From: Vampirovibrionaceae bacterium NZW_1234
GTDB taxonomy: Bacteria > Cyanobacteriota > Vampirovibrionia > Vampirovibrionales > JAGQHJ01
Direction of reading: 5' to 3'
Assembly: GCA_041697335.1 (NCBI GenBank)
Contig: JBGUGD010000039.1
Location: 128,001 to 192,000, forward strand
Length of the DNA stretch: 64,000 nt
Shown here piece after piece: positions 14,673-34,740 of the stretch. The position numbers and the translations under genes were made by a program. A model generated the notes under the pieces. That model ran no database searches. It was not told where the DNA came from and worked only from the letters and a program-made list of their open reading frames with translations. The first letter of the stretch is position 1; each line of letters begins with the position of its first letter.

Positions 14673-14803
14673 TAAAGAAGAAAGAACACACGTTCACAAC
14701 AAACACAACCGTAAACCCAATCGACCCCTAGAATAAAAGGTGTGCTTATTTTTTAGACAAACAGAGCAGAGTTGGAGACAAGGCGAGGAGTTCGTTTTTT
14801 ACA

Positions 14804-17350
14804 ATGAAGACTAAGTTAATGGCACTGGCCCTGACCATGGCCTTATGCAACAGCAGCACACTGGCTCCGCTGGCACTGGCCGCAGCCACAAAAGCACCGC
14901 AAAGTCCGGTTATTCGAAGCACCATTAGCCAAAATACAACCCAATTGGAACTCACCATGGGCAAAGCCCAGGTTATCCGACTCAGTAGCCCTGCTAGCCG
15001 TGTCTCTATAAGCGATCCCCAAGTTGTGGGTGTTGTCCTCATCAGTCCCACCGAAGTCGAGCTAATCGGTAAAGCCGTCGGAGTAGCAAACCTGCTTATC
15101 TGGAACGAAAACAGCGGCTCAAACTACACCACCATCGACTTATCCGTTCATCGTGACGTATCAACCCTTGCCAACAAGATTCAAATGATTGACCCCGGCA
15201 TCAATATCCTGCCGGTCGCTGCGGAAGATTCCGTTATTTTGACCGGTGTCGCCGAGTCCCAGGACAAAGCCCAACTGGCGTATGATTTAGCCAAAGCTTT
15301 CTTCTCCGAAGATCGTGCTGGACAAGGGCAGGCCAATGAAGTCAGCAGTAACTCCCCAGGCAGTGCACTGCAGGCCCAGAGTTCAACAAAAATCATTAAC
15401 CTGATTCGCGTGATGGGCCAGCCCACCACCAAAGCCGAAATGGTTCAGGAGCAGCTGAAGAACATTGATCCCAACATCAAACTCAGCATCGTTCCAGGCT
15501 TTGGCGGCAAGGAGAAAGCCATTTTAATGGGTCGGGTGAAAAACAGCAGTGCCGTCTCCAAGGCCATCAACCTGGCCGGTGTGTTCTATGGCACACCGGG
15601 CATTAAAATTCTTGCCGGCCAAGGTGGAAACCTGGTCAAAGAAGAGGGCGGCAGCAGCTCTTCTTCAAACGACAGCAGCTTTACAGCAGGCAGTGGCGGC
15701 GATCTGGTCAGCAATTTTGCCGGTAACATCCTCCATGGCTCCATTATGACCGATGCCTCTGGCAACGTGGTCAGTATGCTGGAAGTGGAAGAGCGCCCCC
15801 AGATCAAATGCACCATCAAGTTCCTGGAAGTCCAGAAAACCAACGTCAATAATTACACCATTTCTCATTTCCTCGCCGGTGAAACCGCCCGGTTTGCCTC
15901 CTATCAAGGTGGCCTGGGCCAAGGTGTCGTTGCCGGGACCACCACCAATGTCTTGTTTACCACCATCGAAAGCTTTTTTAACCAGGTCAACGGGGCCAAC
16001 AACGCAACATTGGGGATCCGCTATGGTGGAGACTTCTCCAGCGTCTTAAACGGTCTGGTTAGCAACGGTGTGGCCAAGGTCCTGGCGGAGCCAACGCTGA
16101 CCAGTATCAGCGGTGAGCCTGCCTCCTTCCTCGCTGGCGGTGAGTTTCCCATTCCCTTAATCAACAGTACCGGTGGGGTCAGTATTATCTTTAAAGAGTT
16201 CGGTATTCGCCTCAACATGTTGGCCACCGTCACCGACCGCGGCACCGTCCACATGCAGGTCAGCCCTGAAGTCAGTGCTTTGGACGCAAACTCCTCCGTA
16301 AACATCAGCGGGTTCCGGGTTCCCGGCTTAAGCACCCGCCGCAGTCAAAGCGTTCTGGAGATGAACAATGGCGACTATTTCGTCTTAAGCGGGCTCTATA
16401 ATGACAGTTCGACCCGAAACCTGATTAAAACCCCCTTACTGGGACAGCTCCCGATTTTAGGAACCTTGTTCCGCAGCAAAGCTTTCCAGGAAGCCAAAAC
16501 GGAGATTGTCATTGTGGTTCACCCTGAGATCCAATCTCAAATGAATCTCAGTGCCGTGGAATCCCGCAGAGATGCCAATGCCCCTAAAATTAGCGCCGAT
16601 GCCGAAGCCGTTTTGAAGGCCTATCAAATCCCGGGAAGCACCACAACCGCCTCCGAAGGCAAGCCTGAAACCAAGGCCGATACAAAAATCCTGGCCAGCA
16701 CCGATCCCAAGGCTGAGCTGAAAGCGGCAGCCGGGTCGGGAACCACTTCGGACGGCAAACCCACCCGAGAATTCAAACGTGCTTTGAAAAAAGCACAAAA
16801 AGAAGCACAACGGCTTGCCAAAGAAGCCCAAGAGGCAAAAGCTGCTGAACCCCAACCAACTGCCAAGCCCGATTCGACAGCAACAGCCCCATCAACAGAT
16901 TTAGGGACAGTTAGTGGCGCTGCAGGCCAGGTCATCCTTCCCGCAGGTCTGGAAGATTACCTTAGCACTCAAAAGCAAGAACTAACCAACCTGCTAGGGC
17001 GTCTCGAGGCATCCGTAACCCCAGAAGTGGTTGAATCCAGCCCGAAGCCAAGTCCCCAGACCCCAACTGCCAAAGCCCCCCAAGCTACGGCTCCGGCAGC
17101 GGCCCAGAAAGCACTCCCCTCGGCAAAGCCTGGCCAGACCAGTGCCAAAGTGAGTGACATTCCGGCTAAAAGTCTCAATAAGGCAACCACCAGCGGTAAA
17201 CCACTGGCGCCAAAAACCAAAGCCACAAACGTTCCCAAACGTGTAAAACCCACAACCACTGGGGTTCTTCCTCCCCGTAAACCGGATGTGGCCGTACATG
17301 TCAACAAAATCCGACAAAGCCTCACCCAATTGTTAAGTTTCAATCCTTAA
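14804..17350 (+). CDS. cpaC: Tad secretin CpaC/RcpA with duplicated N-module and long P/A/K/T-rich tail
   Basis: Signal peptide; LAEPTLTSISGEPASFLAGGEFPIP, FKEFGIRL and PLLGQLPILGTLFRS secretin motifs. Confidence 0.92.
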   Translation: MKTKLMALALTMALCNSSTLAPLALAAATKAPQSPVIRSTISQNTTQLELTMGKAQVIRLSSPASRVSISDPQVVGVVLISPTEVELIGKAVGVANLLIWNENSGSNYTTIDLSVHRDVSTLANKIQMIDPGINILPVAAEDSVILTGVAESQDKAQLAYDLAKAFFSEDRAGQGQANEVSSNSPGSALQAQSSTKIINLIRVMGQPTTKAEMVQEQLKNIDPNIKLSIVPGFGGKEKAILMGRVKNSSAVSKAINLAGVFYGTPGIKILAGQGGNLVKEEGGSSSSSNDSSFTAGSGGDLVSNFAGNILHGSIMTDASGNVVSMLEVEERPQIKCTIKFLEVQKTNVNNYTISHFLAGETARFASYQGGLGQGVVAGTTTNVLFTTIESFFNQVNGANNATLGIRYGGDFSSVLNGLVSNGVAKVLAEPTLTSISGEPASFLAGGEFPIPLINSTGGVSIIFKEFGIRLNMLATVTDRGTVHMQVSPEVSALDANSSVNISGFRVPGLSTRRSQSVLEMNNGDYFVLSGLYNDSSTRNLIKTPLLGQLPILGTLFRSKAFQEAKTEIVIVVHPEIQSQMNLSAVESRRDANAPKISADAEAVLKAYQIPGSTTTASEGKPETKADTKILASTDPKAELKAAAGSGTTSDGKPTREFKRALKKAQKEAQRLAKEAQEAKAAEPQPTAKPDSTATAPSTDLGTVSGAAGQVILPAGLEDYLSTQKQELTNLLGRLEASVTPEVVESSPKPSPQTPTAKAPQATAPAAAQKALPSAKPGQTSAKVSDIPAKSLNKATTSGKPLAPKTKATNVPKRVKPTTTGVLPPRKPDVAVHVNKIRQSLTQLLSFNP

Positions 17351-17359
17351 AGGAAACAC

Positions 17360-17388
17360 ATCGCCATCCCAAAAATCGGGATGGCGAT
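17360..17388 (+). terminator. Stem-loop after cpaC
   Basis: ATCGCCATCCC-N7-GGGATGGCGAT perfect 11-bp stem. Confidence 0.6.
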
Positions 17389-17650
17389 CCCCCCCTGGAT
17401 CTGTCAACCTCAACTCCCTGCGCTCTATTGGCCCCTATCCGATGAGAAGGTCAAAGACGTGATAGCGAAGGTGCATCTCCTTCAGGTGAGCGACCGCCAT
17501 AAAGAAAATGACAGCTTGGTCGATACCTTCAGTGTATGAGGAAGTTCATCGCCAACGCTCAGAGACGACTGTGAAACCGATGGGTCATATGAACCGACAG
17601 CCCGATAGCTTGGACACCTCAGGCCCCATGACACTTGAGACACTATACCT

Positions 17651-18886
17651 ATGAGAGTAATTGCTGTCGCCAGCACCGAAGAAACCCGAAATATGCTTAC
17701 TAAGCAGCTCCAGCAGCTTAGTTTCATTAAGTTCGACGGTGTTGTGACAGAGCTTTCCGACGCCCAATCGTTGTGGCAAAAGCAAAAGCCCGATTTGCTC
17801 ATTATCGACCTGACCGACCGAGAGCTCGATGCCTGTCTCTTTATCGAAGTCATCAACTACAACGTCGAGAGCAAAACCGTGGTGTTCGGTCTGCACCGGG
17901 AACTGGATCCCAACATCATTGTCAAAGCCGTCTCCAGTGGTGTGAAAGAGTTTATTCAATACCCCAAAGACCCAGCAGCCCTGGAAGCTGCTATCGAAAA
18001 GCATTGGAACTTCCATCAAAAGCTGGCCTTGAAACAAAAAGGCGAAACAGAGCGCGACTACGGCAAAGTCATCCCAGTCTTTGGCAGTAAAGGTGGGGTC
18101 GGGGCCTCCACGGTGGCCGTTAACCTGGCTCACCAGCTACGCTTAGTGACCCGAAAACCGGTTCTCATCTTTGATATGGACCAGGTTTTTGGCAATACAG
18201 CCGTCATGCTCAACTTTAAGGCCAGCTATGCCCTGTCCGATCTGGTGAATGAAAACCCCAACGACATTGATGATGCCGTCTTGGATAAAATCATCGTCCA
18301 CCACGAAACCGGCATCGACCTGATTGTGGCTTGTAAAAGCGTGTTGGATGAAAACCCGCTCATCCCTCCCGAGCTTCTCGAGCGGGTCATGACCTACATC
18401 AAATCCCGGTATGAGTTCATCATCATCGATTTACCCACCCATGTCGTGGATCCGTACCACCAGTACTTTGTGGAAAGTGCCGATGATATTCTCCTGGTGT
18501 CGTCCTTGGACATTCCCGGCCTCTATCGGACCCGCCAGTACATCGAACTGGTGAAGCGCCACCTGGACACCAACAAGGTCAAGCTGATCCTCAACCGCTG
18601 CGACCTCAAAGCTGCGGTAGGAATGTCAAACGAAAGCATTGAAGAAGAGTTTAAATACCCGATCTACTTCCGTCTGCCCAACAATTGGCCGTTAAACGTG
18701 GAAGCCATGAGCCTGGGCCAGGCTCTGGGGATGGTATCTCCCCAGGCGGATTTGGTAAAGGCCTTTCAGGAACTGGCCACCAAGTTGTCCGGCATTGCCA
18801 CATCCTTGGAACCTGAGCGCCAGTCGGAAAAATCCACCGGATTCTTTGGACGATTAACACGGAGAAGCAGTCATGTCGCTGGTTAG
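17651..18886 (+). CDS. cpaE: CpaE/TadZ (receiver-like plus MinD/ParA-like ATPase)
   Basis: N-terminal REC-like domain; GSKGGVGASTVAVNLA; located in the Tad locus. Confidence 0.9.
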   Translation: MRVIAVASTEETRNMLTKQLQQLSFIKFDGVVTELSDAQSLWQKQKPDLLIIDLTDRELDACLFIEVINYNVESKTVVFGLHRELDPNIIVKAVSSGVKEFIQYPKDPAALEAAIEKHWNFHQKLALKQKGETERDYGKVIPVFGSKGGVGASTVAVNLAHQLRLVTRKPVLIFDMDQVFGNTAVMLNFKASYALSDLVNENPNDIDDAVLDKIIVHHETGIDLIVACKSVLDENPLIPPELLERVMTYIKSRYEFIIIDLPTHVVDPYHQYFVESADDILLVSSLDIPGLYRTRQYIELVKRHLDTNKVKLILNRCDLKAAVGMSNESIEEEFKYPIYFRLPNNWPLNVEAMSLGQALGMVSPQADLVKAFQELATKLSGIATSLEPERQSEKSTGFFGRLTRRSSHVAG

Positions 18887-20294
18887 ACAAGGTTGGGGCG
18901 GGTTCAACAAAAAACCCGGTGAATCGGGCCCAGGCCAAGAGCCTGAAACCCCGCATACCGAAGAAACGGCAAGTGAACTGACGGCAAAAAAAGACCAATC
19001 GGCAACAGCCTTGGCTGTAAAAACCGAAAAAGAGAGTGAATCCGAGCAACTGCGGGTCCGGATTCATCGCAGATTGATTGAAGAAATGGATACCACGCAG
19101 CTCAACGATATTAATCCCACAGAGCTGCGTAAACAAATCCGCCAGGCCGTCAATGAACTCCTGTTGGAAGAAAATGCCTTGCTAACCCAAATCGAGCGGG
19201 ATCGGCTGGTCGATGAAATTCTGGACGAAACCATGGGCTTGGGTCCCTTGGAGCCGTTACTGCGGGACAAAACCATCAGCGAAGTCATGGTCAACGGCGC
19301 CAAACACGTCTACGTGGAGCGCAAGGGCAAGCTCGTACTCACCGATGTGCAGTTCAAAGATGACGGCCACTTGATGCAAATCATCGATCGCATTGTCTCT
19401 CGCATCGGTCGCCGGGTCGATGAAAGCACCCCTCTCTGTGACGCCCGTCTTCAGGATGGCTCAAGGGTCAACGTTATCATTCCGCCCCTGGCCATTGATG
19501 GCCCGGCGCTGACCATTCGGAAGTTTTCGGCAGACCCCTACAAGGTCCAGGATCTGATTAATTTCGGCTCCCTCTCGCCTATGGCGGCCGAGGTCCTAAA
19601 AGCCTGTGTTTATGGCCGATTGAATATCATCATCTCCGGCGGTACGGGCTCCGGGAAAACCACGCTCCTTAACGTGGTCTCCAGCTTTATCCCCGATGAC
19701 GAGCGGATTGTCACCATTGAGGACGCCGCCGAGCTACAACTGCAACAGGAGCACGTGGTGCGCCTGGAAACCCGACCACCCAACATTGAAGGCAAAGGCC
19801 AGATTACCATGCGAGATCTGGTCAAAAACTCCCTTCGGATGCGCCCCGAGCGGATTGTTGTCGGGGAGGTCCGGGCCGGAGAAGCCCTGGACATGCTTCA
19901 AGCCATGAACACCGGTCACGATGGCTCTTTGACAACGCTTCACGCCAACACCCCTCGAGACGCCCTTCGTCGCCTTGAGACGCTGGTGATGATGGCAGGC
20001 TTTGACCTGCCGCAACGCGCCATTCGGGAGCAGATTGCCTCGGCCGTCGACTTGATTGTTCAGGCTTGCCGCCTGAGTGACGGAAGCCGCAAGGTCATGA
20101 GCATTACGGAAATCGTCGGCATGGAAGGCGACGTGGTGTTACTGCAGGATATCTTCCTCTTTCGCCAGGAAGGTGTGGATGAAAATGGCAAAATCATTGG
20201 CGAATTCAAATACACCGGTGTCCGACCCAAGTTCCTCGAACGAGTGCTGGCGTCGGGGGCCAAGCTGGATGTCTCGATGTTTGAGCAATTCTAG
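18873..20294 (+). CDS. cpaF: Tad pilus ATPase CpaF/TadA
   Basis: [30 protein letters not shown] and AMNTGHDGS motifs. Confidence 0.96.
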
Positions 20295-20324
20295 ACATCA
20301 AAGTGATGGAGGCACGTAGGCGCG

Positions 20325-21266
20325 ATGGATCCCTTGTATATTGTACCGGTCATCCCCATTCTCTTTGCCTTTGCGGGGGTGTACTACCTGTTCTTTGCCA
20401 AAAAAGACCAGGCCCGTGAGTTTGTTCATCAGCTCTTCAACGAAGAAGACCGCGCAGAGCAGATGCGGCGGATGCAGCAACAACATTACATCCTCAAAAA
20501 GCGCAACAAAGATCAAAGCAAGTTTCTCCAACGCCTGGATATGGATTTAGAGCGGGCCAACCTGATGATCAAACCCAACGAATTCATCATGTTGGCCGTT
20601 GGCGCCGCTTTTTTCTGCGGCCTGATTACTCTGGCCATGGGAAAAGGCCTTTTCCTGACCATTCTCGCTGGCACGGGCGGTTTCTTTTTACCCCAAATGT
20701 ACCTTAAAATCCGCATCATGATGCGGATGAGCAAAGCCCGGGCCCAGTTTGCCGATGTTCTGGACATGATGGTCAGCTGTTTCAAGTCCGGCTACGGCTT
20801 TGCTCGCGCCGTGCAAGTGGTGGCCGAAAACTTTACCGACCCCTGGTCCACGGAACTGAGTAAAGTGGCGGCAGAAATGAATTTCGGCTCTACCCAGGAA
20901 GATGCCCTATTGGCCCTGGCCAAACGGATTCCGAACCCGGATGTGGCCTTATTTGTGACCGCTGTTTTGATTCAGAAAGAAACCGGCGGCAACCTGGCAG
21001 AATTGCTGAGCAATCTGAGCCACACCATCCGGGATCGCTACAAGCTCCTCAGCAAAGTCAGCGCCTTATCGGCACAAGGCAAGCTTTCGGCCATTATTGT
21101 ATTTCTGATTCCCTTTGGTCTGGCCGGGGTATTTACCTTGATTATGCCCGAAATGATGAACAACTTTGCCCATAACCCCATTGGCATCTGTCTTATCGGG
21201 TTTGCCCTGGTGATGCAGGCCATTGGTGGCGTTGTACTCAAGAAAATCGTCTCATTGGAGGTGTAG
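20325..21266 (+). CDS. tadB: TadB (T2SSF domain)
   Basis: IQKETGGNLAELL and LSAQGKLSA motifs; TM helices. Confidence 0.92.
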   Translation: MDPLYIVPVIPILFAFAGVYYLFFAKKDQAREFVHQLFNEEDRAEQMRRMQQQHYILKKRNKDQSKFLQRLDMDLERANLMIKPNEFIMLAVGAAFFCGLITLAMGKGLFLTILAGTGGFFLPQMYLKIRIMMRMSKARAQFADVLDMMVSCFKSGYGFARAVQVVAENFTDPWSTELSKVAAEMNFGSTQEDALLALAKRIPNPDVALFVTAVLIQKETGGNLAELLSNLSHTIRDRYKLLSKVSALSAQGKLSAIIVFLIPFGLAGVFTLIMPEMMNNFAHNPIGICLIGFALVMQAIGGVVLKKIVSLEV

Positions 21267-21270
21267 TGCC

Positions 21271-22242
21271 ATGGAAATGATTATTCTCGGTGCGCTCATC
21301 TTCTTCACCTTGGCCATGGCCGCCTTCGGGGTCATCCAGTCGAAAAACGAAAGCCAGGTCAAAGCCCGCGTATCAAACCTGAACCCAGGTGCGGCACCGA
21401 GCAAAGCCCTGACGGGCCGCCAGAAAAATTTTGATGACAGCTTCACCCAGCGGGTCATTATTCCCTTTGCCCAAAACCTGTCGGATAAAATCCAAACCCT
21501 CATTCCTTTGTCCGGCAAATCCTGGATTCGAATGAAGCTGATGCAGGCCGGATACTTGCGCCCGCAGTACCAGCGAACCTTCATGGGCGTTCACTGTATT
21601 ACCACCGTGGCCCCGTTGTTGTTTGTGGCCTTTCTGGTCCTCATTACCCACTCGGTATCAGGCCTGGTCGCGACGCTTCTGTTTGTCATGTTTGGCGGAA
21701 TGGGCTTCTTTATGCCCATCCTGTGGCTCATTCAGCAAGCGTCCAAACGGCAAAACAGCATCCGAAAAGCCCTGCCGGATTTTCTCGATCTCCTGGTCAT
21801 CTGCGTGGAGGCTGGCTTGGGCTTGGATGTGGCCATTGCCAAGATTTCCAAGATCGAGTCCGTACAGACCTCTGAGTATTTAAGAGAGGAACTGCTGCGG
21901 TATTCCAAAGACATCAGCTTTGGCAAGCCTCGTAAGGATGCGTTGATGGATTTGGCCAACCGGACCGGGATTGACGACCTCAATGCCATCGTCAACGCCT
22001 TGATTCAGGCTTATGAAATGGGCACCGGCGTGGTTCAGGCCTTGAAAGTCCAGTCGGAAGGTCTTCGCCAGAAGCGCCTTCACCGGGCCGAAGCGGCTGC
22101 CAACAAGATTTCGGTCAAAATGGTGCTGCCCATCTACATGTTCTTCTTTCCGGGCATCTTTATCGTGATTCTCGGCCCCTTAATCCTGCATGCCTTCCAG
22201 CAGATTACGCAAACCATGCACCAGACCGGCGGTGGCCCTTAA
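21271..22242 (+). CDS. tadC: TadC (T2SSF domain)
   Basis: LPDFLDLLVICVEAGLGLD and KISVKMVLP motifs. Confidence 0.92.
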   Translation: MEMIILGALIFFTLAMAAFGVIQSKNESQVKARVSNLNPGAAPSKALTGRQKNFDDSFTQRVIIPFAQNLSDKIQTLIPLSGKSWIRMKLMQAGYLRPQYQRTFMGVHCITTVAPLLFVAFLVLITHSVSGLVATLLFVMFGGMGFFMPILWLIQQASKRQNSIRKALPDFLDLLVICVEAGLGLDVAIAKISKIESVQTSEYLREELLRYSKDISFGKPRKDALMDLANRTGIDDLNAIVNALIQAYEMGTGVVQALKVQSEGLRQKRLHRAEAAANKISVKMVLPIYMFFFPGIFIVILGPLILHAFQQITQTMHQTGGGP

Positions 22243-25428: not shown

Positions 25429-26244
25429 TTAATCCAGAATCAAAGGCGCATTACGCTCGTGAGGCAAGCGGTACAGCCCCGGCGGCGGGGCTGCCTGCTG
25501 GCCTTGGGTTCTTGTCAGATCCAACGGCACATTAAGGCGCACCACCAGATTATGATTCAGCTGATTGCGACCGGGGCTGGCCACATCCACAAACTGCAGC
25601 ATATATCCGGCCTCGACAAAGGACTTGTTCTTAAACGTCCGACGAAACCCCGTAAACACCCGCTCCTGGTTAAACCCTGAATCAATGTGAGGCGTATCAT
25701 TAAGGTTCATCAGCAGCTCATTACTGGCCACCCAGGACCAGGGTCCTTTACGAAGGGGCACGAGTGCCCGAATCAAATAACGTCCCCGGACCGACACCTC
25801 GGCCTGATCCTCGATAAACCGTTGCTCCAGGCGAAACTGATGATTAAACCGGACCTTTTTAACGGCATGATTAATCATCGCCTGCTGCCACACCCGTTGC
25901 TCAAACTGCACACTTGAATCCCCAGCATCATCGGTCGGAAAAATGGGGGACCATAAATAACCGGCGGTCAGGCTCAGATGCGTGTTCACATCATAGGTCA
26001 CAGACGGGCGCACCCGGACCAAGGCCAAATGGGTGACGTTCTCTGAAATACGAGGCTGCACCTCCACCGACAACCGGAATTTCTTGACCGGAACCTCCAG
26101 GGTTACCGGCAGCCAAAGCTGCAAATCGTCTTCTAGAGCCCATGCGCTTAGCCCGCTCTGGGCAATCAGCAGCACCCCAAGCAGCAACCCCATCCCCCAC
26201 CTGAAAAAAATCATTTCTATAGACCTGAGTTCAATGACACACAA
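25429..26244 (-). CDS. DUF2490-family outer-membrane beta-barrel
   Basis: Signal peptide; EQRVWQQ, HQFRLEQRF, RGRY and GFNQERVFTG motifs. True start is probably somewhat downstream. Confidence 0.8.
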   Translation of the reverse strand: MCVIELRSIEMIFFRWGMGLLLGVLLIAQSGLSAWALEDDLQLWLPVTLEVPVKKFRLSVEVQPRISENVTHLALVRVRPSVTYDVNTHLSLTAGYLWSPIFPTDDAGDSSVQFEQRVWQQAMINHAVKKVRFNHQFRLEQRFIEDQAEVSVRGRYLIRALVPLRKGPWSWVASNELLMNLNDTPHIDSGFNQERVFTGFRRTFKNKSFVEAGYMLQFVDVASPGRNQLNHNLVVRLNVPLDLTRTQGQQAAPPPGLYRLPHERNAPLILD

Positions 26245-26522: not shown

Positions 26523-26741
26523 TTAGGATTTTTTGTGGCCCTTGCCCAGAAACACCGAATACAGCAGCAAGGCCATACAAATTCCCAGAATAATGACAAT
26601 GGACCAGAGCACCAGGCTGCTACTCAGGAAGAGGGTGGGCAAGAACAAGGTCATCAGGAAGAACAACCCAAAAAAGAACAGCACCCAGTGTTCATCAACA
26701 AATTCGGTGAACGTCATATGATCATGATCGTGATCGGACAT
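26523..26741 (-). CDS. 72-aa two-TM microprotein with HDHDH N-terminus (last gene of the respiratory operon)
   Basis: GAGGGAG RBS; two hydrophobic helices. Confidence 0.7.
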   Translation of the reverse strand: MSDHDHDHMTFTEFVDEHWVLFFFGLFFLMTLFLPTLFLSSSLVLWSIVIILGICMALLLYSVFLGKGHKKS

Positions 26742-26762
26742 AATGTGTGATGCTCCCTCTGA

Positions 26763-26891
26763 TTACGCTTCTGCAATGAGACCGAAACTGGCAATCATCA
26801 ACAGCAGGAAAAAGAAAAAGGAATAAAACCAGATATATCTCATAAAGAGACCGATTTCTTGCTGTGAATCGACTTTGGCGGCTCGAACCAT
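26763..26891 (-). CDS. 42-aa single-TM microprotein (not in ORF track)
   Basis: Hand translation MVRAAKVDSQQEIGLFMRYIWFYSFFFFLLLMIASFGLIAEA*; AAGGAG RBS; fills the operon gap. Confidence 0.7.
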   Translation of the reverse strand: MVRAAKVDSQQEIGLFMRYIWFYSFFFFLLLMIASFGLIAEA

Positions 26892-26917
26892 GGTGTCAGC
26901 GACTCCTTCTATCTATC

Positions 26918-27331
26918 TTACGACTTTGCGCCAGCGCCGGCGTCATACGTATTGAGGAAGCTGACAAACTCCGTTGCCATTTCCCCAAAGCGGCTGTACT
27001 CCAGAGCCGATAACCAGTAGGCCTGAATGCGCTTACGATCGATGCTGGCACGCAGTTTGGGCTGACGCTCACCTTCCAGGCGAGCCTTGAGAAACTTGTT
27101 GCCTTCGCGGTAATAGCAATCACCAATACGGCAACCCGTGGTAATAACGCCTTCGGCGCCCTGTTTCAAGGCCGACTCAATCATGGCCGGTTGAATATGG
27201 CCACTGCATGGGACCTGAATGACATGGACATCAGGGCATTCAGACAGACAGCGATTGTTATCGAGTCTGTTTTTGAAATCAACACTCCGTTCGCAAACCA
27301 GAGCGATTACTTTAACTTTTTTGGCATTCAC
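26918..27331 (-). CDS. MvhD/FlpD-like [2Fe-2S] protein
   Basis: LVC, VPCSGHI, ALKQGAEGV, GCRIGDCYYREGN and RIQAYWLSALE match the MvhD pattern. ATGA-coupled to the upstream gene. Confidence 0.85.
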   Translation of the reverse strand: MNAKKVKVIALVCERSVDFKNRLDNNRCLSECPDVHVIQVPCSGHIQPAMIESALKQGAEGVITTGCRIGDCYYREGNKFLKARLEGERQPKLRASIDRKRIQAYWLSALEYSRFGEMATEFVSFLNTYDAGAGAKS

Positions 27332-28488
27332 GATTGGGTGCTCCCTGCTAAAGCAACTTGTATCTCTTTCAGTACAACATCCGTAGTCATGCGGGGAATT
27401 TCAATGGCCTTAAAGGCACAGGCCCCAACGCAAAGACCACAGTTGGAACAGCGATCGGCGTTCACCACAGCCAAGCGCTTGAATCGGCTGTCATCATCCC
27501 GATCGACCATCTCAATGGCTTCGTAAGGACAGTCGTGGTAGCACAAGGAGCAACCGGTACAGTTGTCGGTCACCACCTGAGCAAACTGGCCCTGGAACTG
27601 TTTCTTTTGAATATAGGGCAAGAGTAACATTGCGACCGGGATGCCCAGGGTCACAGCCCATGCGGCCTGGAGACTGGCACCATTGGCAATCAGGCCATGG
27701 GGCAGCATGTAAAGCCAGTCAATCTCCAGTACACCACCCGGATTGGTCAGGTTCGGCGGGGCACCGACTTTAATCGGCATCAGGCCACAGGCCACCAACA
27801 AGCCACCGAACATCATCAGGTTCAACACCAAGGGGGCATTGGTCACCGGGCGGGTAATGCGCAGGTAATGCCACCAGAGGAAGAAGAGCATGGAGGTGGG
27901 GATAGCCAGGTGGAGAAACAGATAGCGGGTCAGCGTGAAATCGGTGACGATGCTGCCGCCAATCAACAGCTCTGCCAAGGCCTTTCCGCCAAAGGGAAAC
28001 GCTTGGAGGAAGTTGGTGGTGACATAGGTCAGGGTCACGGAGTTGTCATCCCAAATCAGCATGTACCCGGTCAAACCGGCCAAAAAGAGAATCGTAAACA
28101 GGATGACCCCGGTGATCCACGGTAAAATCCGATACTCCCGGTAGCGATCCGTAAACCAGACGCGGAAGAAGTGCAGCAGCACGAAGATCATCATCCCATC
28201 GGCCGCATACCGGTGCATGGCCCGAAACAGCGCCCCGGACGGAATCTGATTGGTCATATAGAGAATCGACGGGTAGGCCCGTTCCAAGGTGGGGTTGTAG
28301 TAGGCAAACAACAGCAGCCCGGAAATGAACAACACCCATAAAAAGAAGTTGGGCAACGCACCATGGTAATAGAACGGATTGAACTTTTGTGAAAACACGA
28401 CGTTCAACAAACGCTCAATACCCAGCGTCAGCCGTTGCAATTGAGAGATCAACCCTCGATAAGCATCAGAAATGGCTTGGCGTACCAC
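27328..28488 (-). CDS. Cytochrome b fused to a C-terminal 2x[4Fe-4S] ferredoxin
   Basis: All four heme His present (MHRY..LLHF; LHLA..WWHY). CTGCSLCYHDCP and CSNCGLCVGACA motifs. GTG start 28488 follows AGGAG. Confidence 0.88.
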   Translation of the reverse strand: MVRQAISDAYRGLISQLQRLTLGIERLLNVVFSQKFNPFYYHGALPNFFLWVLFISGLLLFAYYNPTLERAYPSILYMTNQIPSGALFRAMHRYAADGMMIFVLLHFFRVWFTDRYREYRILPWITGVILFTILFLAGLTGYMLIWDDNSVTLTYVTTNFLQAFPFGGKALAELLIGGSIVTDFTLTRYLFLHLAIPTSMLFFLWWHYLRITRPVTNAPLVLNLMMFGGLLVACGLMPIKVGAPPNLTNPGGVLEIDWLYMLPHGLIANGASLQAAWAVTLGIPVAMLLLPYIQKKQFQGQFAQVVTDNCTGCSLCYHDCPYEAIEMVDRDDDSRFKRLAVVNADRCSNCGLCVGACAFKAIEIPRMTTDVVLKEIQVALAGSTQS

Positions 28489-28501
28489 CTTGTTTAATCT
28501 C

Positions 28502-28732
28502 CTATGATCTATCCGCTTCAGACTTGGTGACGACATTATCCTCTTTGTCCAAAGCGGTCAGTGCGGCCCCAATGGCAACAAAGACCAACCCGGCACCCAA
28601 CGCCCAGCGAAAATATTCGTGGGGATTGTTGGCTGTCAGTGTTTCGGCATTGAACATGAGATAAAGCCCGACGAAGCCTAGCGCGGAAAAAACGACGGCA
28701 ACTGCGACTTTCAGAACTTGAAGAACAGGCAT
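28502..28732 (-). CDS. 76-aa two-TM microprotein
   Basis: TAATG overlap with the upstream gene; two TM helices. Confidence 0.72.
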   Translation of the reverse strand: MPVLQVLKVAVAVVFSALGFVGLYLMFNAETLTANNPHEYFRWALGAGLVFVAIGAALTALDKEDNVVTKSEADRS

Positions 28733-29010
28733 TATTGGCTTTTCTCCCGATGTCGTAATTTACAATACTGATGATCGATCCATTCAAACAACCCGACCTG
28801 GCGGACCAGTTTATCTTCGCGCTTGGCCTTCATATAGGCGTCATGACCGAGGATAATCAGGGTGAGGACCAGAATGCTCAACCACAAAATGAAGTTCGGC
28901 ACACTGGCCTCGGGCGACTCGGACGTCAAGAGGCGCGAAGCGGCAAAGACCTTGGACAGAGCAAAGGTCGATACCAGAAACCAGGTCCACCATAGCAGTC
29001 GTTGGATCAT
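28732..29010 (-). CDS. 92-aa two-TM microprotein
   Basis: ATGA overlap with the cytochrome b stop; starts MIQRLLWWTWF. Confidence 0.72.
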   Translation of the reverse strand: MIQRLLWWTWFLVSTFALSKVFAASRLLTSESPEASVPNFILWLSILVLTLIILGHDAYMKAKREDKLVRQVGLFEWIDHQYCKLRHREKSQ

Positions 29011-30437
29011 GCGGCTTTGGCCTCCTGTGCCACTTGGCGCTTGGAGCCGGTGGCCATAAAGATCAGGCTTAAGCCCAAGAGCAGCAACGAGTAAATGAAC
29101 CACATCGTAAAGTAGGGATGTTTGGCAAATTCAAAGGTGTTGTGAACGATGCTCGGATGATCGGCATACAAGAGATTCATAAACCCTTGCGGTGCCGGTT
29201 TGGGCATCACGTACAGGAAGAAGTACCAGCCGCTCAGCAACAGGTTGGGAACCACAAAGAACAACCAAACATGGATTTGACGGTAGATGGCGTAATGCCA
29301 CAATTCGGCAACGGTCATCATCACGATCATTTGGGCATACCAGATTGGCGGATCCCGGTTAATGTCGGCCACGTTCATGATGATCAGGATGGAGAACAGG
29401 ATAAAATCGATCAGACCGATAATGGCCGCCACGGTAAAGATGGGCCGTTTCCAGGGATCCCGCTCGGGACCGAAATCCAGAAACATTAAGGCAATGGTAA
29501 TAAACGGAATACCCACGGTCCAAATGGTTGCCCAGTAAGGATCCATGTACTTCAGCAATTGGTACAGCGCCAGGAAGTACCAGTCCGAAAGAATCGGCAG
29601 GGGAGTAACCTCCGGGTTGGCCCGGCTGCCCATTTCCGCGGGCAACACAATGGTGGTCAACAGCAGCATCCCGATAAAGGTCAGCACTGACCAGCGGGGC
29701 AGGTTAATACGCTTGTACCGGTTTTTGTAGAAATACAGTTCGGAAATCACCAGGGCAATCAGGGAGATCCCAAAGTGCAGGGAGAAGAAGCGAGTCATCG
29801 TCGCCTGACCGATGGAGGCCCCTCCCAGAAGCATCTGGGAAACGTTGTTGCCTTGATTGGTGTATTGGCCTAACAGAAACGTGGTCGTCCCCACAAGCTT
29901 GGGGAAGAACCAGTATTCTGTAGGGGCTTTCACATCGAGGTAGGTGGGGAAGGTTCCGAAGATCTTGGTCGCCCAGAAGGCCCGTTGGTTCCAGATCAAC
30001 AGGTACCCGGTCAGACCGGAGTACATGGCGGCCACCAGGATGATCATCGCAAGAATAAAGGCAAATTCACCTTTATTCTTGTACTCGGCCCGGAACCACA
30101 TCCGATAAACCTTCAGGGTGGAGGCAATGATAATGGCGTCGCCACCATACTTGTGCATCCCCCGGATGATTCCCAGAATCAGGTTTTCCTTGATGGCAAT
30201 AATGGAATCATAGGCCTGAAAGGTACTGGGAATGTAAAACGCCACCAGAATCAGACCGGTAATCACCGTAATGATCCAGTACAAATAGGCGATACTGCCC
30301 AGTTGATACCAGGGGGAACTGGCTTGAAGGTCCGTTTTGGTTTCGTCAAAGACGTCGATTTTAGCAAACCGATCGGAGACGTAGCGAAACGCCTTGTCCA
30401 GCATCTGAGGGGGGTTAAAGGGTAAATTAACGCCCAC
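29007..30437 (-). CDS. Cytochrome b (b6 + subunit IV fused, extra C-terminal TMs) lacking the heme bH His pair
   Basis: IRGMHKYG, GLTGYLLIWNQRAFWA, TRFFSLHF and PILSDWYF (PEWY-like) motifs; GTG start after GAGGAGG. Confidence 0.88.
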   Translation of the reverse strand: MGVNLPFNPPQMLDKAFRYVSDRFAKIDVFDETKTDLQASSPWYQLGSIAYLYWIITVITGLILVAFYIPSTFQAYDSIIAIKENLILGIIRGMHKYGGDAIIIASTLKVYRMWFRAEYKNKGEFAFILAMIILVAAMYSGLTGYLLIWNQRAFWATKIFGTFPTYLDVKAPTEYWFFPKLVGTTTFLLGQYTNQGNNVSQMLLGGASIGQATMTRFFSLHFGISLIALVISELYFYKNRYKRINLPRWSVLTFIGMLLLTTIVLPAEMGSRANPEVTPLPILSDWYFLALYQLLKYMDPYWATIWTVGIPFITIALMFLDFGPERDPWKRPIFTVAAIIGLIDFILFSILIIMNVADINRDPPIWYAQMIVMMTVAELWHYAIYRQIHVWLFFVVPNLLLSGWYFFLYVMPKPAPQGFMNLLYADHPSIVHNTFEFAKHPYFTMWFIYSLLLLGLSLIFMATGSKRQVAQEAKAA

Positions 30438-31052
30438 TTATGCAATACCTCCTCGTTCTAAATCCGTAATAACCAGCGTCTTGGACGCCTCATCCAAGTG
30501 GAAGGCAAATTGCCGGGGCGGACGAGGTGCAGGACCACTGACCACCTTACCGGACATGGATTTTCCATCCACGTTTTGATCCTGCAAGGGGTCATAAACG
30601 CTTAAGTGGCAAGGACAGCCAAAAACAGGCAACCCTTGCGGGGGCTTATAGTTAAAACTGGCGGCCGACTCTGCCGGATCCGGCAGGTAGCGGAAGATAC
30701 ACCCCATGTGCGGGCAGATGCGGCTGTAGGCCACAAACTGATAATCATCGGGGCTCTTGCCGGGAATCCGAAGGACGTAACCGGGAATTTTACTGATTTG
30801 GGCCCCTTGCCGGGTGTACTCCGGCGCTTTTTGCTCGTAGACGAATTCCTGAACCACCCAGGGTTCAGGGAATGCCGACAGAGGGAAGGTAATGGGCTTC
30901 ACACTGGAGGGCATATCGGGCTTGGAAACCATCCCATGGGGGAAGGGTCCGGCCGTGGGCTTCAGGTACCGGAACAAGGGTGACACAAACAGCAGGAGCG
31001 CTCCAAAAAGCGGGACGCTCAGCGCAAATTTCAAAAATAAACGTCGATTCAT
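30438..31052 (-). CDS. Rieske [2Fe-2S] protein of the bc complex
   Basis: Tat signal NRRLFLK; CPHMGC and CPCHLSVY; GPAPRP. Confidence 0.93.
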   Translation of the reverse strand: MNRRLFLKFALSVPLFGALLLFVSPLFRYLKPTAGPFPHGMVSKPDMPSSVKPITFPLSAFPEPWVVQEFVYEQKAPEYTRQGAQISKIPGYVLRIPGKSPDDYQFVAYSRICPHMGCIFRYLPDPAESAASFNYKPPQGLPVFGCPCHLSVYDPLQDQNVDGKSMSGKVVSGPAPRPPRQFAFHLDEASKTLVITDLERGGIA

Positions 31053-31915
31053 CGGATACGATTCTCCCCGGATTCAGGCATCAGGGCACTGACTTCACGC
31101 ACAGGCTTTTTGGGCAAGGCGGAGGTCTTGGGTGCCTCTTTGGCTGGCGCAGCCTCTAAGTCATAGTCATAGGCAAACCCGCGGATGTATTTCACCAGGT
31201 CCGTAATGGTGGCCCGATCAAACACCACGTTCTTGTCCCGATCCGCTCGGCCTTTCCAGCTTGGCATGGCCGACGGATAGAGGCCTTCTTCAATAAACTT
31301 GATCAATTCGTTATTGGTCCGGTTGTACATCCGGGCATAGCTGTGGAAGTTGGCCGGCGGCGGGTTAAATTGGTTTTTCACCGGCGCCATGCCCAACTCG
31401 TGAGCCGACCCGTGGCCCGAATGCAGCGGACCGTCGGCAAAGCCTTTGGCCCCGTGGCAAACGGCACAGTTTCCACCAAACACGGCCGCAATGTCCTTGT
31501 TGGCAATCTGGGATTCACCGGCCAGGTGACGGGCATAGAAAACCGCTTCCCAACGCTGGTCTCGGGTCAATTGACGAAAAGCCGGGTGCTTGCCCCCATC
31601 GCCCTTGGTCAGAAACAGGTAGGTATCAATGGGGCGAGAGGCCATCATTTTTTCCGTGGCCATAGCCTTACCGGCGTGGCAGGAAGCACAGTTTTGCTCA
31701 AACACCACTTTGCCGCGGCTTAAGCGAGGCGGGCGCTCGGGGAAGGCAAAATCTTCCTCAACCAGCTTCTTGTTCAGCTCCGGAACAGCCACCAGAGTCT
31801 TGGCATTTTTAATCTGCTTTTCTTGCGTCGCACACCCGGCCAAGGTTCCCACCATCAGGACCCCGGCCAGAAGGGAGGCAAAAAGCGTTTGAAACGTCAG
31901 TGTCGTTTTGTACAT
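31049..31915 (-). CDS. Di-heme cytochrome c lipoprotein
   Basis: Lipobox LAGC; CASCH and CAVCH; SAMPSW. Confidence 0.88.
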   Translation of the reverse strand: MYKTTLTFQTLFASLLAGVLMVGTLAGCATQEKQIKNAKTLVAVPELNKKLVEEDFAFPERPPRLSRGKVVFEQNCASCHAGKAMATEKMMASRPIDTYLFLTKGDGGKHPAFRQLTRDQRWEAVFYARHLAGESQIANKDIAAVFGGNCAVCHGAKGFADGPLHSGHGSAHELGMAPVKNQFNPPPANFHSYARMYNRTNNELIKFIEEGLYPSAMPSWKGRADRDKNVVFDRATITDLVKYIRGFAYDYDLEAAPAKEAPKTSALPKKPVREVSALMPESGENRIR

Positions 31916-31926
31916 GGGTCTATCAC

Positions 31927-32097
31927 CTAGTAACCAAAAAACTTAATCCACGAAATGGAGGCCCAGCTAATGATGATGGCAAAAAAGACCCACAAAAACC
32001 AAGGCACCCGATGCTTTCCGATTTCAAACTCAACGTAATCATCGGTGGAAACATCCTGGGTATGACCTTGGGTCGGGTTGGCGTGTTCTTCACTCAT
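31927..32097 (-). CDS. 56-aa single-TM microprotein resembling the CcoP/FixP N-terminal helix (not in ORF track)
   Basis: Hand translation MSEEHANPTQGHTQDVSTDDYVEFEIGKHRVPWFLWVFFAIIISWASISWIKFFGY*; GAGGT RBS. Confidence 0.65.
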   Translation of the reverse strand: MSEEHANPTQGHTQDVSTDDYVEFEIGKHRVPWFLWVFFAIIISWASISWIKFFGY

Positions 32098-32127
32098 GGT
32101 CTCGTTACCTCAAGCCTCTTTCGCTTC

Positions 32128-32298
32128 TTAATCATCTAACATGCGGTATTTCGTATCTTCCAGCGCTTCCAGCCGCCCACTGCGTGAGGCAATAAACATG
32201 GCCCCCACAGCACCGACGAAGAAGAGGGCACAGATCAGCAGGGCAATGATGTAGCCGGGAGACAATGCTGACAGTGCCGGAAAACAGTTGGGACACAT
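32128..32298 (-). CDS. CcoS-like cbb3 maturation microprotein with N-terminal CxxC (not in ORF track)
   Basis: Hand translation MCPNCFPALSALSPGYIIALLICALFFVGAVGAMFIASRSGRLEALEDTKYRMLDD*. The C-terminus resembles CcoS RSGQ...R.L.DD. ATG directly follows the ccoO stop. Confidence 0.7.
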   Translation of the reverse strand: MCPNCFPALSALSPGYIIALLICALFFVGAVGAMFIASRSGRLEALEDTKYRMLDD

Positions 32299-33252
32299 TT
32301 ATCGATTCCCCAAGTTACGGCTGGAACCATAGGTATTACCCTCGTCTGTGCCCAGCTTATCCACAGAGCGGTAGTTCTGATCCAGGGCAAAGGGGTTGTC
32401 CACCTGCTCGATGCTTTGGATTTCCTCTCCGGCAGCCTGGGCATCCTGCGGCAGGGTTTTCAGGAAGGCCACCAGATACAGCATCTGCTCGCGACCCAAG
32501 GAGAGACCCCAGCGAGGCATCCGGGTTCCGGGAACCCCTTCCTTGACCCGGTAGTACCACATGGCATCGGTAAAGTTGTTGTAGAAGGGCCGGGTAAAGT
32601 TGGCCGGTTTCTTTTCCATGGTCAAACTCATCGGACCGTTGCCCTTGCCTTGAATGCCGTGGCAGACAGAGCAGTTTTGCATGTAAATGCCTCGACCGGC
32701 GTTGGCGGCCGCAGGCGAATTCACGTTGACGTGGGTTTTCACATGATCGTATTCGTCCCGCATTTCCTGAGGCGGCATCACCCAATGCTCCACCTTCCGG
32801 TTGGCCCCGAGGGTCTGGAGGTAAGCCACCAGCTGATCCATTTCCTCATCGGTCAGATAGGAGTAGCTGGGCATAATCGAACCCGGTTTCACCTTACGCG
32901 GGTACATATGGTGGGTGCGGTGCCATTGACTGGGGTACTTGCCCCCGATGTTGGACAGATCCGGACCGGTCCGCTCGGTTCCCAAGACGTGGGGGGTTTC
33001 AAACATGTAATCGCCGGCAGCCACCATCTCGCCGCCGCCACGGTCTTGGTAGCGGTTAAACTGGGTATGGCAGTAGAAACAGCCTTCCCGACGATAGATG
33101 TTCCGACCGGCCAATTCTTTGGGCGTGTACTGATGCGCCGCAGCGGTCGGAGTCGGACGAAAGGTACTGGCCGGCAGAACCGTGGTAACAAAGATAATGA
33201 CTAAGAAGATGAGAACCACAAAGCTTCCAGCAACCAGATAATTTATTCTCAT
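32299..33252 (-). CDS. ccoO: cbb3 oxidase subunit II fused to an extra cytochrome c domain
   Basis: GRNIYRREGCFYCHTQ, GTERTGPDLSNIG, PGSIMPSY; second heme motif CSVCH with MP ligand. Confidence 0.9.
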   Translation of the reverse strand: MRINYLVAGSFVVLIFLVIIFVTTVLPASTFRPTPTAAAHQYTPKELAGRNIYRREGCFYCHTQFNRYQDRGGGEMVAAGDYMFETPHVLGTERTGPDLSNIGGKYPSQWHRTHHMYPRKVKPGSIMPSYSYLTDEEMDQLVAYLQTLGANRKVEHWVMPPQEMRDEYDHVKTHVNVNSPAAANAGRGIYMQNCSVCHGIQGKGNGPMSLTMEKKPANFTRPFYNNFTDAMWYYRVKEGVPGTRMPRWGLSLGREQMLYLVAFLKTLPQDAQAAGEEIQSIEQVDNPFALDQNYRSVDKLGTDEGNTYGSSRNLGNR

Positions 33253-33309
33253 AACCGAAGGTCCTTTTTCTATCCTATTCTTCTGCCGATTCTACTGCTC
33301 GGGCCGATA

Positions 33310-34740
33310 CTAAACGTAGACAATGCCCGTGGGGGAATGCGGGAGCGCCTCGCATTGCTCACGGCTGAAGACGGTTTTGTACACATTAAACATAAAGAGA
33401 ATTTGACCCAGAACAATCATCACGCCCGACAGGGAGCGGATCCACCAGTAGGGTACCAGCTCGATAACCCACTGATCCAGGGGAATCCCGTGGTGCCAGC
33501 CTGCCGACTGAACCAGACCGGCAATGGTCAAATCGATCATCATCAAAATCCAGCCATACAGGGACAACCAGAAGTGCCACACAGCCAGGCGCTTGCTGTA
33601 CATCTTGCGCCCCGTAATCCGGGGGATGATGTAATAGGTGGCGGCAAAGACAAAGAAGGAGAAGGTTGCCAGCAAGGCCATGTGGGCGTGGGCCACAACC
33701 CAGTTGGTAAAGTGAAGATACCAGTTAACCCATCGGGTCGCCTGAAAGGGCCCTTGAATACAGGTTAAGAGATACGCAATCCCGCCGGCCATGGCAAAGC
33801 GAAGCGGAATGTGTTCAGCCGCCGTATGCCATTTGCCTTTCAAGGTCATAAAGAAGTTGGTCAATACCGTCAATACCGGCACCAACAAAAAGACACTGGA
33901 GATAACGGCCACCGATTTCAGCCACTCGGGAACCGGGGACTGCAAAATGTGGTGCGTCCCGGTGGGGGCATAGAACATCCCGATGGTCCAGAACCCGATC
34001 ATGGATAAGGTGTGGCTATAAAGCGGGTTGCCGGTAAACTTGGGAATCAGGTAGTACATAATCCCAACCCCACCGACGGTAAACCACATCCCTAAGATAT
34101 TGTGTCCGTAGAACCAACCGGTAATGGCATCGTTCAAACCTTCCAGCTGAACAAAGGCCCGGTTGCCGATAATGTAAACGATGGGAAACCAGAAGAGCGC
34201 CCCAAGGAAGTACCAGATGGAGACGTACCATTTTTTCTCCGTCCCGGTCATCACGGTCATCCAGCAATTGACGCCCAACATCAACAAGGCCAGCAAAACG
34301 GCCCAATCCAAAACCTGAATGGCGGCGCCACCAATATAGATGGTCCCAGCCAGTTCCGCATATTCACGGGCTTCCGTGTCCCCGTTCAAAATGCCCCAGA
34401 TCCCCCAGAACATCACCAGGTTCCAGGCAAACATGGTCACGTTACCCAGACGCTCGCTCCACAAGCCACGACGTCCCGAAAGGACGGGAATAATGTAGAA
34501 CATACAAGCGGCATAACCCATCGAGAGCCAGCCGACCAAGACAGCGTTGGTGTGAACCGGGCGCAAACGACCAAAGGACAGCTGGGCGACACCGGCCAGG
34601 GCATCCGGCACATCAAACTGCATGGAAGCCAACAAACCGATAGACGTCCCAAACACCAGCCAAAAGATGGCCGTGATCATGAAATTCCGACTCGCACTGT
34701 ACGGTTCTCGACTAAAAATGGCAGATAAAACGCGTTCCAT
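33310..34740 (-). CDS. ccoN: C-family (cbb3) heme-copper oxidase subunit I
   Basis: FGRLRPVHTN, EAREYAE, WFYGHN, YAPTGTHH and WVVAHAH: all six His plus the helix VII Tyr. Confidence 0.94.
   Translation of the reverse strand: MERVLSAIFSREPYSASRNFMITAIFWLVFGTSIGLLASMQFDVPDALAGVAQLSFGRLRPVHTNAVLVGWLSMGYAACMFYIIPVLSGRRGLWSERLGNVTMFAWNLVMFWGIWGILNGDTEAREYAELAGTIYIGGAAIQVLDWAVLLALLMLGVNCWMTVMTGTEKKWYVSIWYFLGALFWFPIVYIIGNRAFVQLEGLNDAITGWFYGHNILGMWFTVGGVGIMYYLIPKFTGNPLYSHTLSMIGFWTIGMFYAPTGTHHILQSPVPEWLKSVAVISSVFLLVPVLTVLTNFFMTLKGKWHTAAEHIPLRFAMAGGIAYLLTCIQGPFQATRWVNWYLHFTNWVVAHAHMALLATFSFFVFAATYYIIPRITGRKMYSKRLAVWHFWLSLYGWILMMIDLTIAGLVQSAGWHHGIPLDQWVIELVPYWWIRSLSGVMIVLGQILFMFNVYKTVFSREQCEALPHSPTGIVYV

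Follow-up and report, generated by a model that had tools for sequence, protein, structure and literature searches.

The locus studied here raises the question whether the functions of one respiratory cytochrome b can be divided between two different chains and, if so, where the electrons of the quinol then go. It lies in a 64,000-nucleotide stretch (the window) of Vampirovibrionaceae bacterium NZW_1234 (GenBank assembly GCA_041697335.1, contig JBGUGD010000039.1, positions 128,001 to 192,000), in which a minus-strand operon encodes a Rieske protein, two cytochromes b, here called A and B, and an MvhD/FlpD-like iron-sulfur (Fe-S) protein, together with a cbb3-type oxidase (Table 1; positions are those of the window). 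An earlier sequence-only reading had proposed that A and B carry complementary losses and form a heterodimer wired to ferredoxin and MvhD. We found that the feature is real, ancient and strictly conserved, and that it works like a Rieske/cytochrome b complex at the quinol-oxidizing (Qo) site, yet is no canonical bc1 or b6f complex. A and B probably pair in a single dimer that has three b haems and one functional Rieske head.

Complementary losses in two cytochromes b

In cytochromes b, the first histidine pair of helices B and D binds haem bL and the second binds haem bH. Cytochrome A keeps the first pair, His95 (CAC, 30153-30155) and His221 (CAC, 29775-29777), and carries Lys109 (AAG, 30111-30113) and Tyr235 (TAT, 29733-29735) in place of the second. 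These four codons and the PEWY-like SDWY motif, at residues 284-287, are as the sequence-only reading had described them. Lys109 falls on the bn/bH ligand His100 of solved cytochrome b6 in an ungapped alignment, and Tyr235 falls on the helix-D bn ligand in an alignment with one gap. The spacing of the helix-D ligand positions is 14 in both A and B and 15 in 104 of 108 four-histidine relatives. An AlphaFold2 single-chain model of A has the cytochrome b fold (pLDDT 93), and the protein joins PF00033 and PF00032 in one chain instead of the split layout of b6 and subunit IV.

Conservation of the lost ligands was followed in two sets. The first holds the best 120 of 839 matches of A, from a search that collects sequences by shared words and so biases motif counts upward; here position 109 is Arg in 98 and Lys in 21 of the 119 homologues covering it, position 235 is Tyr in 119 and Trp in one, and SDWY is present in 120/120. 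The second was drawn from 28 genome loci, 80 of 552 metagenome loci chosen by two A motifs, and two further loci. All of its 103 distinct A proteins are basic at position 109 (Arg 99, Lys 4), and His95, His221, Glu233, WNQRA.WA and SDWY are invariant. The conservation of position 109 (119/119 and 103/103) excludes a sequencing error, chance or a pseudogene. Position 235 varies among Tyr (50), Phe (31), Arg (12), Leu (5), His (4) and Met (1). The idea that both histidines are lost everywhere was dropped, since the helix-D histidine remains in those 4 of 103 orthologues and in five distant representatives; the helix-B His-to-Arg change is therefore the family-wide lesion. Alignment of orthologues, which had been proposed as a check, thus upheld the helix-B half of the double loss and not the helix-D half as a universal feature, and the return of four histidines that would have spoken against the proposal was not seen, the helix-B bH ligand being absent in 103/103. 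A full-library search showed a compact A family (25 of 2578 clusters at E 1e-30 or better), beyond which the four-histidine pattern takes over. Outside the A clade, P0140, P0141 and P0145 have a His-Arg-His-Tyr/Phe pattern with a PDWY motif, possibly an independent loss of bH.

Cytochrome B keeps all four ligands, His92, His106, His193 and His207, and has IDWLY at the position of the Qo motif, both as first described. The four histidines are present in 84/84 distinct B proteins. A small residue of the Qo site, 61 positions past the first histidine, is Ala or Gly in 98 of 104 four-histidine relatives and Ala in A; at this Qo glycine position B proteins have a bulky residue (Leu 68, Ile 13, Val 3 of 84) and B lacks the Trp before it. 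Trp155-Ala156 (the cd1 W-G/A pair), SDWY and the bL ligands are all on A. Mean conservation of the Qo region is 0.90 in A vs. 0.49 in B, compared with 0.66 vs. 0.58 for the whole membrane parts (77 pairs). Four histidines and a Qo site on one chain, the canonical arrangement, are thus found on neither protein: A is without the helix-B ligand and B is without the Qo residues. We take Leu153 of B to stand at Gly158 of the Rhodobacter protein, by a residue offset and with Rhodobacter His97 located by alignment. Gly158 to Trp is the standard Qo knock-out in Rhodobacter (PMC4330944).

The two CxxCxxCxxxC motifs of B and its coupling to an MvhD-like gene (PF02662 E 1e-23) were also borne out, and four Cys are conserved in 80/80 MvhD orthologues. 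The ferredoxin domain of B and MvhD match consecutive stretches of the HdrA2 model (566-644 and 646-770); a weak search for longer MvhD fusions gave no matches. The model of B (pLDDT 89) has six predicted membrane helices and matches only cytochrome b folds. Six helices would bring the C-terminus to the side of the N-terminus and so place the ferredoxin domain in the cytoplasm, and the periplasmic Fe-S domain that the sequence-only reading had listed as a refutation is not supported by this model. A hydropathy scan of B gave only four clear peaks, so the topology rests on the model and on homology. Neither chain has the haem ci cysteine, as had been stated: the residue is Gln45 in A and Tyr41 in B, and among the 77 paired orthologues the position is Cys in one A and in no B.

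Co-inheritance and the A-B dimer

A is followed by the genes for B and MvhD in 25 of the 28 genome loci; among the 83 loci that extend 2.5 kb or more downstream, 80 have both genes next to it. In two of the three exceptions B-mvhD is on another contig of the same genome. In the third (L149), B is cut at residue 267 by unrelated DNA and MvhD is missing; this break may be an assembly chimera or a real disruption. Among 49 genomes of the order, in which kin are not independent, A occurs in 32, B and MvhD occur in the same 30 of these, and 17 have none; in the two genomes with A alone, of 56% and 84% completeness, A lies close to the end of a contig. Pairwise identity among the A proteins tracks that among the B proteins (r 0.97), much of which shared ancestry alone explains.

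Of 401 genomes sampled from the class, 161 have A. Two further families that were opened show the same operon, as does Vampirovibrio chlorellavorus, a named species with a sequenced isolate (L020). Across the metagenome loci the core module is constant and the oxidase varies, being cbb3 upstream, a divergent haem-copper oxidase downstream, or none. At least two carrier lineages look unlike Vampirovibrionia, and the atlas cluster for B is commonest in Armatimonadota (17 named members), which is a lead only. No A orthologue was found among the plasmids searched. A and B come out as sisters with an SH-aLRT of 94, below the mark of 95, in a midpoint-rooted tree of 68 selected rows, and P0140, P0141 and P0145 fall outside, so a single origin is at most suggested.

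The membrane part of B was folded with two copies of A and gave a complex score of 0.42, against 0.00 for the best control, which we grade as weak support. The runs agreed on at least 63% of contacts, with partner pLDDT of at least 73. Among 157 solved complexes 116 reached the mark for this score, as did 2 of 215 mismatches; both of these mismatches, but only 18 of the solved complexes, reached it with 0.60 or less. Resemblance to known bc1/b6f dimers can also yield such a score. No solved structure of such an A-B pair was found by sequence or fold search. Of the heterodimer claim, then, the complementary losses and the co-inheritance stand firm, and the structural check amounts to a weak pass.

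Canonical bc1, b6f and b6c complexes (PDB 2qjp, 1q90, 2zt9) share with this system the fold, the bL ligands, the Qo residues (in A), the Rieske protein and the cytochrome c acceptor. They are homodimers with four histidines, a Qo site and a quinone-reducing (Qi) site in each monomer, whereas here the functions are split over two 26%-identical paralogues, an Fe-S arm is added, and the haem ci CxGG motif of b6f/b6c is absent. An engineered Rhodobacter bc1 cross-mutant, G158W + H212N, turns over through bL-bL transfer (PMC4330944). As in that enzyme, Qo would be dead in one half and bH in the other, with bL-bL' as the only link; the cross-mutant, however, is a laboratory construct with a normal Qi site, while the arrangement here is natural, conserved and ends in a ferredoxin domain and MvhD. 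We found no description of complementary losses or of a natural heterodimer in the full-text literature searched, which misses most subscription papers.

The path of the second electron

The mechanism that we favour as a whole, an A-B heterodimer with outflow of the second electron, is offered tentatively, at a little under an even chance. The single Qo site, in A, would oxidize menaquinol. One electron would pass from the Rieske protein to the dihaem cytochrome c, its predicted acceptor, and on to cbb3 and O2. The other would run from bL(A) to bL(B), bH(B), the two [4Fe-4S] clusters and MvhD, and would leave to free ferredoxin. From there it might reach NADP+ via an FNR-like protein, or menaquinone via a complex I that is without NuoEFG, so that a cytoplasmic loop would replace the internal Q-cycle. 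Given the dimer, it is slightly more probable than not that neither chain has a working Qi site, in which case the second electron would exit to free ferredoxin. Outflow to the ferredoxin/NAD(P) pool is slightly favoured; whichever way the electrons run, the pool of free ferredoxin is the simplest choice of partner.

Three kinds of evidence favour exit through the arm: a short D-E linker, the lack of the ci Cys, and the Rieske signature together with menaquinone. The D-E linker helps to form the quinone-reducing site (PMC5600118). From the fourth histidine to the Qo-Trp position it measures 51 residues in 74/77 A and 48/77 B proteins; the median is 74 in 95 canonical relatives, so that A and B are about 20 residues shorter. 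There is no His five residues after the last ligand in A or B, and in B this residue is variable. The genome has genes of the futalosine pathway to menaquinone, with two PF02621 genes, and, as its sole UbiA-family match, an MqnP-like prenyltransferase; menaquinone is thus the likely quinone. Of 95 Rieske orthologues, 75 carry a Ser-Tyr and 20 a Ser-Phe signature, a class of high and mid-high potential, 260 mV or more (PMC4122944), and the Rieske protein of this operon is accordingly predicted from its sequence to have a high potential. PDWY-type Qo sites are reported only with low-potential Rieske proteins (PMC4122944).

For the anammox complexes Kuste4569-4574 and Kustd1480-1485, quinol bifurcation through Fe-S clusters to a cytoplasmic low-potential acceptor has been proposed (PMC12954380). 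Potentials of +303 and +335 mV, measured for their Rieske proteins in a host that uses menaquinone, were argued to permit NAD(P)+ reduction (PMC12954380). The signature and pathway genes found here fit this pattern. In contrast to an A-B pair, models of the anammox complexes have a b6-like homodimer as core, which contains haem cN, and a flavin subunit that belongs to the complex; the function of these complexes is still a proposal. With this analogue the outflow that the sequence-only reading had claimed is plausible, and no HdrA or dedicated acceptor was found for it. Possible ferredoxin sinks in the genome are complex I, whose genes are nuoABCDHIJKLMN only and for which NuoF was not found, an FNR-like gene and small ferredoxins, named from translations and family matches. 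A link between the module and NuoF absence was considered and dropped as an anecdote, as there is a single NuoF-family match in the order (G334, without the module); it lies outside any nuo operon, beside what reads as a hydrogenase/formate-dehydrogenase-type Fe-S protein, and that genome has a four-His PEWY cytochrome b.

Several observations weigh against outflow from a heterodimer. The complex prediction is weak, and neither an interface nor haem and Fe-S distances can be read from it. The absence of Qi comes from alignments only and is a weak test, a D228-like motif (Asp at the start of helix E) being present in just 49 of 95 canonical relatives. Invariant n-side residues in B might form an unusual quinone site. 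Typical low-potential ferredoxins lie at about -400 mV or lower. Estimates for the anammox complexes reach -475 mV for bL and are near -345 to -315 mV for bH (PMC12954380), and from such a bH, with the electron moving inward against the membrane potential, reduction of low-potential ferredoxins would be difficult. The Rieske signature is a predictor only; Rieske proteins of every potential class occur in menaquinone complexes of PEWY type (PMC4122944). HdrA as a partner was rejected, as the 94.75% complete genome has no full-length HdrA and only short partial matches, and the suggested search for HdrA-like or flavoprotein partners of MvhD gave none that is dedicated: no conserved flavoprotein occurs among the shared neighbours of 82 loci (18 representative neighbours scanned), and no dedicated NAD(P) oxidoreductase subunit is found in the window operon or the scanned shared neighbours. 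The genome also has two 2-oxoacid:ferredoxin oxidoreductases, which supply reduced ferredoxin and suit an input of electrons. Finally, neither A nor a Rieske protein accompanies a B-type fusion protein of Defluviimonas, 33% identical over 334 residues and grouping with B (SH-aLRT 98), and B is thus able to act in another context.

The main rival keeps the same heterodimer and gives B an unusual Qi site, with the Fe-S arm as an electron input or store; we rate it as somewhat unlikely. As an input, the arm would bring one electron from reduced ferredoxin to meet one that comes from Qo via bL-bL'-bH', as in Mitchell's original Q-cycle, which has been proposed for b6f; as a store, it would hold the first electron in place of haem ci. 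Input is energetically downhill, finds its ferredoxin donors in the genome and needs no dedicated partner gene, and B could contribute its invariant n-side residues (Asn37, Tyr40, Arg109, Thr113, Arg115, Arg120, Arg210 and Pro214). Ferredoxin/FNR input on the n-side is a discussed mode of b6f (PMC7908018), and MvhD in Hdr-Mvh is an adapter for interchangeable electron donors (PMC6019823). On the other hand, the shortened D-E linker, the missing ci Cys and the variable residue five past the fourth His of B do not suit a quinone-reducing site, and a high-potential Rieske signature would be superfluous. Ferredoxin entering here would also bypass the pumping complex I, an argument likewise made for anammox (PMC12954380).

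It is improbable that A and B form separate homodimers, in which A2, a quinol oxidase with bL alone, would feed cbb3 by a broken Q-cycle and B2-MvhD would be an independent module that is merely co-transcribed, either a ferredoxin:quinone oxidoreductase or a trans-membrane wire. Such enzymes have precedents, in that a b6f mutant without bh and ci still grows (PMC3112540) and a Pyrobaculum cytochrome b is without a bH ligand (PMC4122944); B-type proteins also occur without A, and B is split from A in two genomes. But wherever the context is complete A was found together with B, complementary losses would be puzzling in proteins that never meet, and B scores above the controls, weakly, even against a second A copy.

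Least probable of all is that A binds a second haem through non-histidine ligands, for which the invariant Gly47, Arg112 and Glu233 around the former bH pocket could be cited, or that the arm is non-catalytic (redox sensing, or reductant for oxidase or cytochrome assembly), as B-type genes beside SCO and haem-O synthase in Defluviimonas and the module beside ccm genes in one lineage might hint; the basic side chain at position 109 is long and six different residues occur at position 235, unlike axial ligands, and three clusters in series resemble a wire in a module conserved with or without an adjacent oxidase.

The operon and its relatives

The operon is a minus-strand run of 13 genes (26523-34740) with gaps of -4 to 57 bases between genes (Table 1). 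The sequence-only reading had placed the complex at 26918..31052, and the genes lie there as described, within an operon that extends further on both sides. The Rieske gene abuts the gene for A. B starts at a GTG (28488) behind a GGAG ribosome-binding site, and its stop overlaps the start of the MvhD/FlpD gene. ORFs of similar size occupy the place of the 76-aa gene in other loci. The 42-aa peptide resembles the C-termini of some distant A proteins (P0130, P0131, P0134, L073-L075; low scores in a hydrophobic sequence), which suggests that the far operon end belongs to the same complex. Promoter and terminator scans gave chance level only. The genome (3.7 Mb) has no cytochrome b matches other than A and B, and it also encodes a bd oxidase.

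Table 1. Genes and sites of the operon, in the order of transcription (window positions).
Feature	Position	Strand	Evidence
CcoN, cbb3-type (C-family) oxidase catalytic subunit, 476 aa	33310..34740	-	TIGR00780 E 1e-76, under curated cut-off; PF00115
CcoO fused to second cytochrome c domain, two CxxCH	32299..33252	-	PF02433 + PF00034
CcoS/FixS maturation protein, 56 aa	32128..32298	-	PF03597 E 3e-5
56-aa membrane peptide, conserved, no family	31927..32097	-	tblastn match in 27/28 genome loci
Dihaem cytochrome c, lipoprotein-like N-terminus	31049..31915	-	two CxxCH; PF13442/PF00034
Rieske protein, twin-Arg N-terminus, boxes CPHMGC and CPCHLSVY	30438..31052	-	PF00355
Cytochrome b A, 476 aa, retains bL ligands and Qo site but has lost bH ligands	29007..30437	-	
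Lys109 of A, replacing helix-B bH histidine	30111..30113	-	Arg 99, Lys 4 of 103
Glu233 (invariant) and Tyr235 (helix-D bH histidine position) of A	29733..29741	-	Glu 103/103
Qo motif SDWY of A	29577..29588	-	103/103 locus orthologues
92-aa membrane protein, predicted accessory subunit	28732..29010	-	matched in loci from genomes and metagenomes
76-aa membrane protein, predicted accessory subunit	28502..28732	-	matches in 3/28 genome loci
Cytochrome b B, 386 aa, four haem His, degenerate Qo, C-terminal ferredoxin domain	27328..28488	-	
Leu153 of B, at small Qo residue position (Ala156 in A)	28030..28032	-	
Two CxxCxxCxxxC motifs, 2x[4Fe-4S] domain of B	27418..27561	-	matches HdrA C-terminal ferredoxin part
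MvhD/FlpD-like [2Fe-2S] protein, 137 aa	26918..27331	-	PF02662 E 1e-23
42-aa membrane peptide after mvhD	26763..26891	-	tblastn, 23/28 loci
72-aa His-rich membrane peptide, last gene of run	26523..26741	-	3/28 loci, closest relatives only

The two-cytochrome-b operons that the sequence-only reading named for Melainabacteria are in print, as cited at second hand: a C-family oxidase with two cytochrome b genes is given there with reference to Soo et al. 2017 (bioRxiv 10.1101/531145), and the operon is also discussed in PMC6349859. The Melainabacteria complex III-IV operon likewise has a C-family oxidase, a Rieske protein and two cytochrome b genes, and the operon here is very probably that published Melainabacteria/Vampirovibrionia operon. 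The excerpts of these accounts mention no lost ligands, Fe-S/MvhD arm or heterodimer. PMC6349859 labels the subunits b6f-like, which the missing ci Cys and the fused subunit IV do not fit. The excerpts of PMC5700660 and PMC6431628 contain nothing on the A/B module.

Cytochrome b fused to 4Fe-4S and MvhD domains is known as the PDWF-FeS clade (PMC4122944) or subfamily H (PMC5600118). Its domain order is that of B plus MvhD, and B shares its four histidines; for the PDWF-FeS clade, however, the excerpt describes no Rieske protein or bH-less partner and MvhD is fused, whereas here a Rieske gene is in the operon and MvhD is separate. The Defluviimonas fusion that groups with B is the one member of this clade available for the tree. 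The ligand table excerpted from PMC5600118 has one planctomycete H-Q-H-Q protein with PEWY and no H-R-H-Y protein. The ferredoxin domain of B and MvhD match C-terminal parts of HdrA of HdrABC-MvhAGD in sequence; unlike in that complex, no HdrA flavin domain was found in this genome and the arm is attached to a dihaem cytochrome b.

Other arrangements were seen in relatives. The Defluviimonas fusion is a stand-alone cytochrome b-ferredoxin-MvhD protein without a Rieske protein, on plasmid NZ_CP156080.1 (L153:9945-16484). The other genes of its operon are those for a CuA subunit, a divergent haem-copper subunit I, haem-O synthase, SCO and haemerythrin. In L083, L088, L092, L116, L134, L135, L141 and L144, the 42-aa peptide is followed by a divergent CcoN-like haem-copper subunit (129 bits vs. 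a 583 cut-off) and two small cytochromes c. Of the 17 order members without the module, the two that were opened (L160:7114-11326 and L161:1725-6069) encode instead a PEWY cytochrome b with four His. Around it lie a Rieske-like gene and genes for two membrane proteins, of which one has CxxCH, a putative complex III of a different type.

Elsewhere in the window are a Tad/Flp pilus cluster (12972-22242; TadE, RcpC, secretin, ATPases, TadB/C-like), flagellar basal body and export genes (51936-57748; FliI-type ATPase, FliG, FliF, rod protein), and three consecutive large ORFs (1963-6244; 382, 503 and 541 aa) that precede an acyl-CoA dehydrogenase-like gene and match no Pfam family at E 1e-5. A DUF2490 gene (25429-26244) lies downstream of the operon and has two paralogues elsewhere in the genome. 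The same genome encodes, in a non-photosynthetic host, a homologue of the cyanobacterial clock protein LdpA (2x[4Fe-4S]; L042:967-1989), below the curated cut-off.

The debate on whether bL-bL transfer across the cytochrome bc dimer matters in vivo has drawn mainly on engineered mutants, and a natural family with bL-bL as the only route would make it testable in a wild-type enzyme, whichever way the electrons flow. Outflow, if true, would make this the second Rieske/cytochrome b complex to produce low-potential reductant, the first being that of the still unproven anammox proposal, and would change the picture of aerobic respiration in the closest non-photosynthetic relatives of cyanobacteria. 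It is possible, with the balance leaning somewhat against it, that the main complex III of aerobic Vampirovibrionia and of at least two other lineages is an obligate heterodimer that has no Q-cycle and performs O2-driven bifurcation into the ferredoxin/NAD(P) pool. If so, it would be a natural cross-wired bc1 through which the sister group of cyanobacteria gains low-potential electrons without light.

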